DNA of 25,522 bases. Source: an uncultured Pseudomonadota bacterium. Its GTDB lineage: Bacteria; Babelota; Babeliae; Babelales; UASB340. The stretch spans positions 1 through 25,522 of the forward strand of contig CAZFDQ010000215.1 of assembly GCA_964518205.1 (NCBI GenBank), written 5' to 3'. The notes beneath the pieces were generated by a model. That model was not told the DNA's origin, did no database searches, and worked only from the letters and a program-made list of their open reading frames with translations. The translations under genes and the position numbers were made by a program. Positions 8,459 through 13,711 of the stretch are shown here, one piece after another. Each line of letters opens with the position of its first letter. Position 1 is the first letter of the stretch.

Positions 8459-8586
8459 GATTTTATAGAAGCATTAGTTTGAAATTAAAGTTAGTGATGA
8501 CAATAGTAGGCAATATTGATTGTTTGTTGTAGTTAGGTATGATGATTGTGTGCCTGTGAATGAGTTGTAAATTATGATAAGTAGTG

Positions 8587-8700
8587 TTGTCATCCCGGCC
8601 TACGAGCCGGGATCCACAGTAATATAATAATGTAGGTAACTTTTATAATTGGATATTGTTTATTAATTGTTTGGATCCTGAAGTAAGTTCAGGATGACAA
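8587..8700. repeat. REP/RPE-like doublet (REPIN/MITE-like), 114 bp
   Basis: Outer inverted repeat TTGTCATCC (8587-8595)/GGATGACAA (8692-8700); left hairpin ATCCCGGC/GCCGGGAT (8592-8599/8606-8613); right hairpin ATCCTGAA/TTCAGGAT (8675-8682/8688-8695); inner GGATCCA/TGGATCC around an AT-rich spacer. Confidence 0.85.
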
Positions 8701-11920: not shown

Positions 11921-13711
11921 CTATTTGTCTATTTGCAATAGTTTTATTGTTTTGGATAATTTACGATGGTAGCTTATGGCGAAATGGTGCGCATAGTCGC
12001 GTAATGATATTAAAACTTGGCCAGCGTAGGTTTGTAGGTTTAGCTTTTTGCCTTCGGGGATTTTTACAGAAAATACGGTTTCTTCTCGTTTTGCAAGACT
12101 TATAAAATTTGCTTCGGAAAAAAGATCTTTTACGGCATTAAGTTGTCCTTTGCCGCCGTCAATTAAGATAAGATCGGGTAACTCTGATTTATTTTTGTAT
12201 CTTCTTTTTACTATTTCACGCAAACATGCGTAATCGTCTTGATGTTCAACGGTTTTTATTTTAAAACGTCTGAATTTATCTTTGTCTGGTTTACCATCTT
12301 TAAAGCGGATACAAGATCCAACCATAAACATGCCTTGTTTATGTGATATATCAAAGCAGTCTATTGTGTGTGGTTCGATGTCTAATCTGAGAAGATTTTT
12401 TAATGCTTTTGGAATAGTTTTTTGTTTTTTAATTTCTTGTTTGGCATGTATTTTTGCAAGCTTTATCAAGCTTGCAAAATGTCCAGATTTTGGTTGTTGA
12501 ACAGTTACTTTGTGTTCTTTATTGCCTGTGATCCGAAGCCTTGCTGTGCCCGCCGGAGCCTTGTACGAAGGCTGGGGCGAAGGATTATTCCATTTTTGTA
12601 AGAATTGTTCGAGTAGTTTCTTGTCTTTGATTTCAAAGTTAGAAAGAATTGTATTTGGACATGAATGGTTTTGGTAGTAGCTGGTTAAGTATTTGAGGGG
12701 AAGTTGTTCGTTTGTATCCGTTCGACTACGAGATTTTATCTCTTCGTTCAGAATGAACGGATTTTGGGTTATTTTTGTTTTTATAGTCCGTTCGCCCTGA
12801 GTGGAGCAACGCGAAATCGAAGGATGCGAACGGATTTCATCTAACAAAAAATAAAAAGCATACTTTTTACGCAAAGCGCTATTTTTTTCAGTAAAAACAA
12901 ACAAAACTTTTTTATCTGGAGTTAAGATCCAAATATCTTTATCGCCCAAGCTTTTAATTGAAGATTTTGTAGAAAAGTTTGTTTGCAAAGATTCGAACAC
13001 ATTTTGAAATGCTTTGTAGTACTCATGTAACTCTTTTGATTTTTCAAAATTAAGCTTTTTATTTTCTTTTTCAATTTCTTGTTCAAGGTGTTTTAAGAAG
13101 TTTTTATGACCTTTTTTTAATGCAAGCTTTGCAAGTTCTAATCGTTGTATGTAAGCATTTTTGTCAAAGTCGGGACGGCAGTATCCTGCGCATATTCCCA
13201 TATGATAATCAAGGCATCCATTTTCTATTTTTTTCTTACAAAGCTTTAGTTTGAAAGTTTGAATTAAAAAATCATACACTTTTCGGGCTGGTGTTTTTTC
13301 TAAGAATGGGCCAAAGTAGACACCTTTTTCTTTTTTGTTTCTAATAATTTTTAGTTCAGGTAATTTTTTGGGAGGAGTTGTTATGAGAATGTATAAAAAC
13401 AGTTGTCCTGTTTTGAGTAATATATTAAATTTTGGTTGATTTGATTGAATTAGCTGTGCTTCCAGCAGCATTGCTTCGAGTTCGTTTTTTGTAGTGATAA
13501 AATCAATTTTTTGGCTGCTTTCAATAATTGCACAGGCCTTTTTATTGGTATCTTGTTTTTGAAAATAACTGGCAACACGTTTTTTTAGATTTTTTGCTTT
13601 ACCGATATAAAGAATTTGATCATCTTTATCTTTAAATAGATAGACCCCTGGCTTTGCGGGTAATTTTTTGAAATCGGTAATGAGGTTTGAGAGGTTTTTA
13701 TTTTGTATCAT
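11921..13711 (-). CDS. uvrC: Excinuclease ABC subunit C, with two in-frame palindromic insertions and no C-terminal HhH
   Basis: GIY-YIG domain PGVYLF...YIGKAKNLKKRVASYF, ALMLEAQLI-type helix (AMLLEAQLI), Cys cluster LCKK...CLDYHMGICAGYC, UVR-like LNFEKS, RNase H-like domain IDCFDISH...LILIDGGKGQL...SLAKREE...RDYAHHFAISYHR. Confidence 0.93.
   Translation of the reverse strand: MIQNKNLSNLITDFKKLPAKPGVYLFKDKDDQILYIGKAKNLKKRVASYFQKQDTNKKACAIIESSQKIDFITTKNELEAMLLEAQLIQSNQPKFNILLKTGQLFLYILITTPPKKLPELKIIRNKKEKGVYFGPFLEKTPARKVYDFLIQTFKLKLCKKKIENGCLDYHMGICAGYCRPDFDKNAYIQRLELAKLALKKGHKNFLKHLEQEIEKENKKLNFEKSKELHEYYKAFQNVFESLQTNFSTKSSIKSLGDKDIWILTPDKKVLFVFTEKNSALRKKYAFYFLLDEIRSHPSISRCSTQGERTIKTKITQNPFILNEEIKSRSRTDTNEQLPLKYLTSYYQNHSCPNTILSNFEIKDKKLLEQFLQKWNNPSPQPSYKAPAGTARLRITGNKEHKVTVQQPKSGHFASLIKLAKIHAKQEIKKQKTIPKALKNLLRLDIEPHTIDCFDISHKQGMFMVGSCIRFKDGKPDKDKFRRFKIKTVEHQDDYACLREIVKRRYKNKSELPDLILIDGGKGQLNAVKDLFSEANFISLAKREETVFSVKIPEGKKLNLQTYAGQVLISLRDYAHHFAISYHRKLSKTIKLLQIDK
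12524..12583 (-). repeat. 60-bp palindromic insertion in uvrC (codons 377-396), apparently nested
   Basis: GC-rich island encoding PSPQPSYKAPAGTARLRITG; inner hairpin AGCCTT-N5-AAGGCT; flanked by ATT on both sides (12521-12523 and 12584-12586). Confidence 0.75.
12716..12835. repeat. 120-bp palindromic doublet inserted in frame in uvrC (codons 293-332)
   Basis: Outer inverted repeat ATCCGTTCG/CGAACGGAT. Sub-hairpins 12716-12762 (ATCCGTTC/GAACGGAT) and 12787-12834 (TCCGTTCGC/GCGAACGGA) separated by an AT-rich spacer. Exactly 40 codons. Confidence 0.85.

Follow-up and report, generated by a model that had tools for sequence, protein, structure and literature searches.

A nested GC-rich hairpin element carried in frame by uvrC of a Candidatus Dependentiae genome, probably one copy of a widespread repeat family

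Rickettsia palindromic elements (RPEs) were reportedly described by Ogata et al. in 2000 and 2002. As outlined in the part of PMC10969869 that deals with them, they are ~150 bp long, fall into ten families and lie in frame in unrelated genes. Small GIY-YIG nucleases of the Ssn type, which act on single-stranded DNA (ssDNA), are flanked by their own target hairpins (NTS/SRM), according to the passages of PMC11893778 on these enzymes. Palindromes have also been described in organelles, including those of Volvox (PMC2670323), the repetitive hairpin elements of sponge mitochondria (PMC2800124) and the coding palindromes of Nematomorpha mitochondria (PMC6649704). In the overviews given by these papers they appear as small hairpin-forming repeats that invade AT-rich compact genomes and sometimes coding sequence. 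Here, we describe a 60-bp composite hairpin element that lies in frame within uvrC, in a window of 25,522 nucleotides (the whole stretch of DNA that was analysed, contig CAZFDQ010000215.1, labelled C215) from an assembly of 1.48 Mb with 32.5% GC in 295 contigs (GCA_964518205.1, labelled G000). The closest UvrC relatives all come from metagenome-assembled genomes (MAGs) of Candidatus Dependentiae, Babeliales or TM6. We interpret the 60 bp as one copy of the composite form of a short GC-rich repeat family spread through Dependentiae, with a probability of about 0.7 as a joint figure for the whole explanation developed below.

The element consists of two modules of the same family, the inner one lying within the loop of the outer one. 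The gene, the element and its parts are as follows:

11921-13711, minus strand: uvrC, the host gene, an open reading frame (ORF) of 596 aa (ORF translation and Pfam).
12524-12583, minus strand: the composite hairpin element, 60 bp or 20 codons, UvrC residues 377-396.
12576-12587, minus strand: 5' half of the outer module, with stem arm TAATC (12583-12587) and the first 7 loop nt, CTTCGCC (12576-12582).
12543-12575, minus strand: inner module of 33 nt, with stem CCAGC/GCGGG, a 17-nt loop CTTCGTACAAGGCTCCG and tail CACAGC.
12524-12542, minus strand: 3' half of the outer module, with the last 9 loop nt AAGGCTTCG (12534-12542), arm GATCA (12529-12533) and tail CAGGC (12524-12528).

The nested structure was revealed by a deletion scan, in which the junction 14-mers of all 8,840 deletions of 6-90 bp within 12480-12630 were examined, and the scan was repeated with 12-mers. 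Excising 12543-12575 (equally 12544-12576) joins CTTCGCC to AAGGCTTCG and gives the 16-nt loop of the family, CTTCGCCAAGGCTTCG. This 33-bp deletion is the only one to give a GC-rich junction word that recurs in the genome, which it does six times; the other matches are low-complexity words rich in A/T, the one exception being a 13-bp variant, out of frame, in which AAGGCT of the inner copy is used again. The restoration of the family loop is far more than chance would produce. An initial annotation, made from the sequence alone, had proposed that removing a 33-bp bracket leaves a motif resembling the inner copy, and that both pieces belong to one repeat family, one inside the other. The first point is borne out by the scan, in which no other deletion does this, and the second by the restored 16-nt loop together with its 17-nt variant in the inner module. 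Two other derivations were considered and rejected: a tandem duplication, since the repeated words run L-L-R-T-R-T (nested) and not L-R-T-L-R-T, and a 13-bp deletion joining two family words, which breaks the frame and would leave one half without its partner.

The individual parts agree with the family to different degrees. The outer stem TAATC/GATCA is paired at four of five positions, and its tail CAGGC agrees with the family tail CA(A/G)G(C). The inner stem CCAGC/GCGGG is likewise paired at 4/5 positions, and its third-position A.G mismatch recurs in 6 of 34 family copies; a stem of this type (CCCCAGC...GCGGGC) is present in genome G058, and the inner module shows 76% identity to a copy on contig C261 by hand alignment. 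When a family hidden Markov model (HMM) was run genome-wide, the rebuilt outer module scored E = 1e-4, the native inner module E = 0.67 and the native outer 3' half E = 3.8. The first of these scores is not independent, because the HMM seeds were found with the rebuilt word, whereas the existence of the family is. As a fold, the inner module is modest (a 6-bp plus a 4-bp stem), and the fold energy of the 72-nt stretch is no better than that of shuffles (DNA z = -1.1, RNA z = -0.56), so thermodynamic stability is not evidence here.

The trinucleotide AAT on both sides had been put forward as a possible 3-bp target-site duplication. Both flanks do carry AAT, but the outer stem extends 1-4 nt past the left edge first drawn, to ~12587, so that the left AAT is part of the stem. 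A 3-nt match is also weak evidence in DNA with 68% A+T, and other family copies show no flanking repeat. Without the 60 bp, the protein loop is one residue longer than in most orthologs, and without 63 bp it has the same length; this fits an AAT duplication and, equally, ordinary length variation.

The basic module of the family is ~31 nt long and has a variable but paired 5-bp stem, the conserved 16-nt loop and a CA(A/G)G tail. The 16-mer loop has four other exact copies in this genome and seven more with 1-2 mismatches, each with short complementary arms on either side and a tail of the GGACA(A/G)G type, and an HMM built from the other copies detects ~20 family copies. With at most one mismatch, the 16-mer occurs in 126 of 201 sampled Dependentiae genomes (0-42 copies each) and in 11 of 12 genomes of the same family, while a reversed control gave one match in total. 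The motif is thus not unique in the genome; uniqueness would have counted against the reading of the initial annotation. The word proposed there for the search, taken as CCTTCG-N(1-5)-AAGGC, is rare, with one occurrence in the window and two on each strand of the genome; it is the 16-mer recovered by the deletion that carries the information, and not CCTTCG...AAGGC. Covariation was examined in 34 distinct copies from several genomes, in which the five loop-adjacent positions are paired in 79-88% of cases, compared with 37-78% when partners are shuffled; at stem positions 1, 2, 3 and 5 the observed pairing was reached by none of 2,000 shuffles. Several pair types occur at each position, and pairing ends abruptly at position 6. 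Because the copies are related to one another, these figures indicate a maintained hairpin and do not represent a formal probability. The module often forms the tip of larger palindromes of a second family (arms CCGTTCG...CGAACGG), in either orientation, and it is often found after the encoded CCA end of tRNA genes, as CCATA-loop-TATGG. An Rfam search returned sub-threshold chance matches only, and a literature search found no paper describing such repeats, or their encoded peptides, in Dependentiae.

In UvrC, the element encodes residues 377-396 (PSPQPSYKAPAGTARLRITG), read in frame from 12583 to 12524; the minus-strand sequence is identical to that quoted in the initial annotation, and the frame is kept as stated there, 60 bp making 20 codons within the 596-aa ORF. 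Its GC content is 66.7%, compared with 32.2% in the remaining uvrC. This UvrC keeps every column that is invariant across 31 aligned UvrC sequences, and the identical 596-aa protein is on record on five contigs. The segment had been read as an insertion, a view with which an alignable stretch of equal length in orthologs would conflict. The comparison agrees with the insertion: all 14 UvrC orthologs from related genomes are without it, it is missing in 29 of the 30 other sequences of the alignment, and the anchor-to-anchor stretch, 50 aa here, measures 29-32 aa in 70 of 76 metagenomic homologs. Besides the identical protein, no UvrC more than 57% identical in this region was found among 5.8 billion proteins, and the alleles with 0 or ~9 extra residues that the initial annotation had predicted were not seen in this lineage. 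Two sequencing runs contain this DNA; in the independent one (X2), the contigs stop at 12516 and resume at 12797, breaking at the repeats.

An AlphaFold2 model of UvrC (mean predicted local distance difference test, pLDDT, of 78) places the insert between a helix (364-375) and a strand (403-405), in the non-catalytic RNase-H-like domain. The pLDDT falls below 50 only at two short linkers (residues 97-102 and 243-255) and at the two segments derived from repeats (290-333 and 377-398), the last of which covers the composite insert, although low pLDDT is partly expected where the alignment offers no homologs of a segment. The model is in keeping with the surface loop that had been anticipated, as the insert sits in a loop predicted to be disordered. 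Judged from the gene and its predicted fold, the most likely product of the 60 bp is a disordered surface loop of 20 residues, the presence of which UvrC tolerates. The domains of the protein and the neighbouring repeats are:

UvrC residues 21-96, GIY-YIG domain; residues 331-374, RNase-H-like domain (PF22920); residues 439-579, endonuclease domain (PF08459).
12786-12842, minus strand, and 12700-12762, plus strand: two second-family hairpins, neighbours of the composite (nhmmer).

This second-family pair (arms CCGTTCG...CGAACGG, variable tip) adds ~40 residues to UvrC, corresponding to the low-confidence region 290-333, and most orthologs are without it. The first loop, after residue ~292, carries independent repeat-derived inserts of up to ~60 residues in several other Dependentiae lineages (L031:2001-3740, L044, L092 and L033), with peptides such as LRQAQGER, and constitutes a second insertion hot spot. 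Many Babeliales of other families (L013-L026) have a short UvrC of 416-446 aa without the middle region (residues ~250-430 of the query), which is where both repeat insertions sit here.

The loop that holds the composite has itself received inserts more than once. In one Dependentiae MAG, the same spot is occupied by 25 residues that derive from an independent insertion of the second family. A sister lineage presents a series at this loop: it is empty in L012, contains a simple variant hairpin directly after a Trp codon in L185 (~10 additional aa), and in L184 contains an L185-type hairpin with a small extra hairpin at its tip (~14 additional aa). Because of this series, growth within the gene at hairpin tips is plausible.

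For the composite itself, the evidence from other genomes suggests a different order of events. A scan of 201 genomes for the loop split by 18-48 nt found, in addition to uvrC, 13 split-loop composites in seven Babeliales genomes (G118, G121, G148, G167, G034, G050 and G154). All 13 share the split point CTTCGCC|...|AAGGCTTCG, and the inner hairpin, which begins with C and ends in ...GC or ...CC, measures 33 nt at 11 sites and 30 or 31 nt at the other two, with stems that vary yet stay paired. These composites lie between genes or within larger palindromes, and one of them immediately follows a tRNA gene. At 23-24 of its 33 positions, the inner module of uvrC has the same base as its counterparts in G118, G121 and G148. 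Three composites of G118 have identical inner modules, which argues that composites spread as units. The inner-type loop (CTTCGC-R-TAAAGCT...) is mostly free-standing in three other genomes (30, 25 and 14 copies), and the inner type is therefore a separate module that entered the loop of another. Nesting by insertion is real and a property of the element family. Since the same split-loop composites exist elsewhere, nesting probably predates the arrival in uvrC, and the 60 bp probably reached the gene as one piece. Further nested or tandem mosaics of the same modules are present in this genome at C168:3892-3956 and C131:7340-7460. At the latter, a 28-nt deletion restores CCTTCGACAAGC, the centre of the second family (seven genome copies), so that a first-family hairpin has also entered the tip of a second-family palindrome.

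The initial annotation had instead read the locus as two successive insertions into uvrC, that is, as protein growth caught in steps. The nested modules of one family remain from this reading, but the two steps within the gene do not follow, given 13 ready-made composites elsewhere and the possibility of a one-step landing. In its fullest form, this alternative holds that a simple member of ~27-30 bp entered uvrC in frame and that a second, of 33 bp, later entered its loop in situ. Free-standing outer modules do exist in this genome, and free-standing inner ones in others; lengths of 27 and 33 bp both keep the frame; the sister-lineage series from L012 through L185 to L184 follows such a course at the same loop; and the composite has no second copy in this genome. 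The 13 composites that share both the junction and the length of the inner module, three of them with identical inner modules, point the other way, as do the lack of a free inner-type donor in this genome and of an intermediate allele and the unsupported AAT duplication. We consider a two-step origin in situ possible, if unlikely.

The composite in uvrC is one of several family members that are read within genes. Ten of ~21 family copies lie within long ORFs, identified by Pfam as gltX (glutamyl-tRNA synthetase), a TLC ATP/ADP translocase, a DEAD-box helicase, TonB, a glycosyltransferase, a two-domain oxidoreductase and others. Eight copies co-oriented with their host gene are all read in one frame, as S-x-[FY]-A-K-A-[ST]-x-D-[KR]. 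The outer module of uvrC is read in another frame (PSP...RLRITG), and its inner core in the usual one (YKA). The canonical module is stop-free in all six frames, as are 12% of composition-matched shuffles. The gltX copy has no counterpart in nine orthologs. The second family has ~50 genome copies, 23 of them in long ORFs. It contributes four in-frame copies to ftsK (885 codons, contig C196:1209-3863, L157) and one or two each to mnmG, uvrA, murG, uppP, trmD, a Mur ligase gene and an FtsX-like permease gene. A 745-codon ORF (C6:3708-5942, L145) combines a pair of zinc-type alcohol dehydrogenase domains with a GFO/IDH/MocA oxidoreductase domain; its linker (~residues 409-419) is exactly the site of a reverse-oriented hairpin copy, through which two genes may have become fused.

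These features recall RPEs, in that palindromic repeats of an AT-rich intracellular bacterium lie in frame in unrelated housekeeping genes (uvrC, gltX, TLC translocase, DEAD-box helicase and others), are read through, and are compatible with the fold by prediction. The differences concern the phylum, the size (a module of ~31 bp and a composite of 60 bp versus ~150 bp), the conserved loop with a variable stem, the nesting and the association with a GIY-YIG gene. Because sequence, size, architecture and host phylum differ, the Dependentiae family is not a member of the RPEs; the separation rests on size and host as RPEs are described in the relevant part of PMC10969869.

A candidate for the mobilising enzyme is a small GIY-YIG gene that looks like a mobile cassette targeting the ends of tRNA genes. 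On contig C60 (656-1268), the order is tRNA-Val, hairpin, tRNA-Asn, a hairpin-like sequence and a GIY-YIG gene of 78 aa (C60:1032-1265). Of 61 sampled Babeliales genomes, 39 have homologs, in many cases 2-5 of them and some interrupted by internal stops, and 23 of 30 loci adjoin tRNA genes of many different kinds. Matches to the family HMM are present at 11 of 29 GIY-YIG loci, usually 130-500 nt upstream of the gene and in the same orientation, and at 0 of 42 control loci taken from comparable genomes (Fisher p = 1.4e-5). Among genomes with the gene, 31 of 35 contain the loop (mean 5.6 copies), versus 7 of 21 genomes without it (mean 0.67), a comparison that is not phylogenetically corrected. 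Pfam assigns the small nuclease to GIY-YIG only, and NCBIfam gave no match for the protein. The gene (~78-85 aa; loci L190-L218), almost always sited immediately downstream of tRNA genes, stands behind a conserved leader containing GCGAAGGCTGTCCGCCGAAG-like words.

This arrangement is similar to the Ssn system in its many-copy hairpins of 20-50 nt, in a small (~80-95 aa) single-domain GIY-YIG gene flanked by them and in the co-occurrence of the two across genomes, as far as the Ssn systems are characterised in the corresponding sections of PMC11893778. Hairpins beside a small GIY-YIG gene and their co-occurrence are both found here, with tRNA genes as a confounder. The Dependentiae cassette differs in lying behind tRNA genes and in having repeats in coding frame, neither of which appears in those sections of PMC11893778. 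Another repeat of this genome, GTCATCCTGAAC..., looks more NTS-like than the family of the composite. A third family, GTCGTCATCCTGAAC-TTGT-TCAGGATGAC / GGATCC..., occupies ~80 sites in the genome (e.g. C6:3682-3708; window 8584-8621), almost wholly intergenic, and closely resembles the Neisseria NTS hairpins (CGTCAT...ATC) as presented in the same part of PMC11893778. The organellar palindromes differ in their hosts, and no associated nuclease gene is described for them in the overviews cited above; the likeness to them is one of description.

The genome also encodes five Y1 (IS200/RAYT-type) transposases of 142-157 codons, all above the Pfam cut-off (contigs C285, C94, C190, C200 and C286; L163-L168), one of them broken by TGA, an unusual feature for a 1.5-Mb genome of intracellular type. 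Each gene has its own small GC-rich hairpins to the left and right, inverted in a REPtron-like manner, and these hairpins belong to other families than that of the composite. Repetitive extragenic palindromic (REP) sequences and their BIME arrays, with the associated RAYT (Y1) transposases, are comparable to the present family in that short imperfect palindromes often form composite arrays and the proposed mobiliser, itself flanked by repeats, acts on single-stranded hairpins. They differ in that REPs are extragenic, and the Y1 genes of this genome stand next to hairpins of other families.

It could be asked whether the hairpins spread by a route other than the GIY-YIG cassette, either through Y1 transposases acting in trans or, free of any enzyme, by template switching or gene conversion between hairpins during replication. 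The five Y1_Tnp genes and their inverted flanking hairpins are what the first version calls for, but those hairpins are without the loop of this family. The second version is consistent with the covariation of stems around invariant loops, an outcome expected of template-switch correction at quasi-palindromes, and with genome G058, in which the loop orientation flips relative to the outer arms. The enrichment of family copies at GIY-YIG loci (11/29 vs 0/42) and their co-occurrence with the gene across genomes speak against both, and we regard such routes as rather unlikely.

The position of hairpins behind tRNA genes raises another alternative, in which the hairpin is a host signal (a trailer, terminator or processing hairpin with CCA as its 5' arm) and the copies in coding sequence are neutral by-products. 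In G000, 26 of 32 tRNA genes encode the CCA end, and 6-8 of them (e.g. on C60, C62, C99 and C264) are directly followed by a CCANN-loop-NNTGG hairpin in which CCA forms the 5' arm. Such CCA-arm hairpins suggest a processing role, or the use of host bases as a stem arm. The form CCATA-loop-TATGG directly follows tRNA CCA ends in at least five genera and at several tRNA genes here, and the loop is conserved across the whole phylum, as a host signal would be. A signal of this kind leaves unexplained the copies in both orientations within ORFs, the range of 0-42 copies, the nesting and the absence at orthologous sites; moreover, no T-run follows the hairpins, and no Rfam family matched them. For these reasons, we judge it improbable. 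An ordinary lineage-specific expansion of the UvrC loop by slippage or drift, GC-rich by accident, or an assembly artefact deserves next to no credence, since, although loop length varies among homologs and the fold energy is unexceptional, it conflicts with the deletion scan, the family HMM, the phylum-wide loop, the matching composites and the identical protein on five contigs.

In the explanation that we favour, namely that a ready-made composite of a widespread hairpin family landed in uvrC, one module would have inserted into the loop of another to form the nested composite, probably before uvrC was reached, and the composite would then have entered the gene as a single in-frame insertion of 60 bp. 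The hairpin family would be the cognate of the small single-domain GIY-YIG cassette found behind tRNA genes. Ssn/NTS and RAYT/REP, systems that the enzymology is likely to resemble, suggest by analogy that the nuclease of this cassette would recognise the hairpin in ssDNA and nick it there. Copies would spread to new sites, exposed hairpin loops included, and within genes only frame-preserving copies in permissive loops would survive.

Several observations weigh against this explanation. At the locus itself, translation of the insert is deduced from the intact frame alone, and no allele was found without the insert or without the inner module alone, the nearest other UvrC being 57% identical. 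This genome yielded neither a second composite nor a clear inner-type copy standing free, and its assembly, ~91% complete, is interrupted at repeats. With respect to the enzyme, the published SRM pattern is not matched by the family: its five strict matches in the genome, compared with ~2.3 in shuffles, belong to a related CGTCATCCCGG... type. The nearest solved relative of the nuclease is the UPF0213 protein BH0048 (1ZG2, E = 3e-4) and not a proven Ssn. Furthermore, tRNA genes confound the link between hairpin and nuclease, as some of the hairpins behind tRNA genes lie in places without a neighbouring nuclease gene, and the five Y1 transposases could in principle move hairpins. Owing to the mismatch with the SRM pattern, the UPF0213 relative and the tRNA confounder, we regard the GIY-YIG nuclease as a putative driver of the repeats.

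A stronger claim would be that the GIY-YIG cassette at tRNA ends drives phylum-wide hairpins of 31-33 nt, which insert site-specifically, always at CTTCGCC|AAGGCTTCG, into the single-stranded loops of hairpins already present, build modular nested palindromes and lengthen protein loops by ~10-11 residues per step. We hold this to be rather doubtful; if true, selfish DNA would make proteins grow by a defined route that an enzyme drives.

From a practical point of view, the repeats break metagenome assemblies and inflate the numbers of 'hypothetical' peptides in Dependentiae annotations. Three features are distinctive here: a split-loop composite that recurs, a 16-nt loop of phylum-wide distribution, and the link between this loop and a GIY-YIG cassette associated with tRNA genes. 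The finding made in Rickettsia, that selfish palindromes are tolerated as extra peptide in essential proteins, is extended to a second, unrelated phylum of intracellular bacteria, with an element that is much smaller and modular compared with that of Rickettsia. The coding insertions are tied to a candidate enzyme, and the mechanism is therefore testable, which, to our knowledge, was never achieved for RPEs. Finally, the recurrence of split-loop composites suggests that hairpin loops serve as targets for insertion in their own right; this would account for the construction of mosaic palindromes such as BIME-like arrays.

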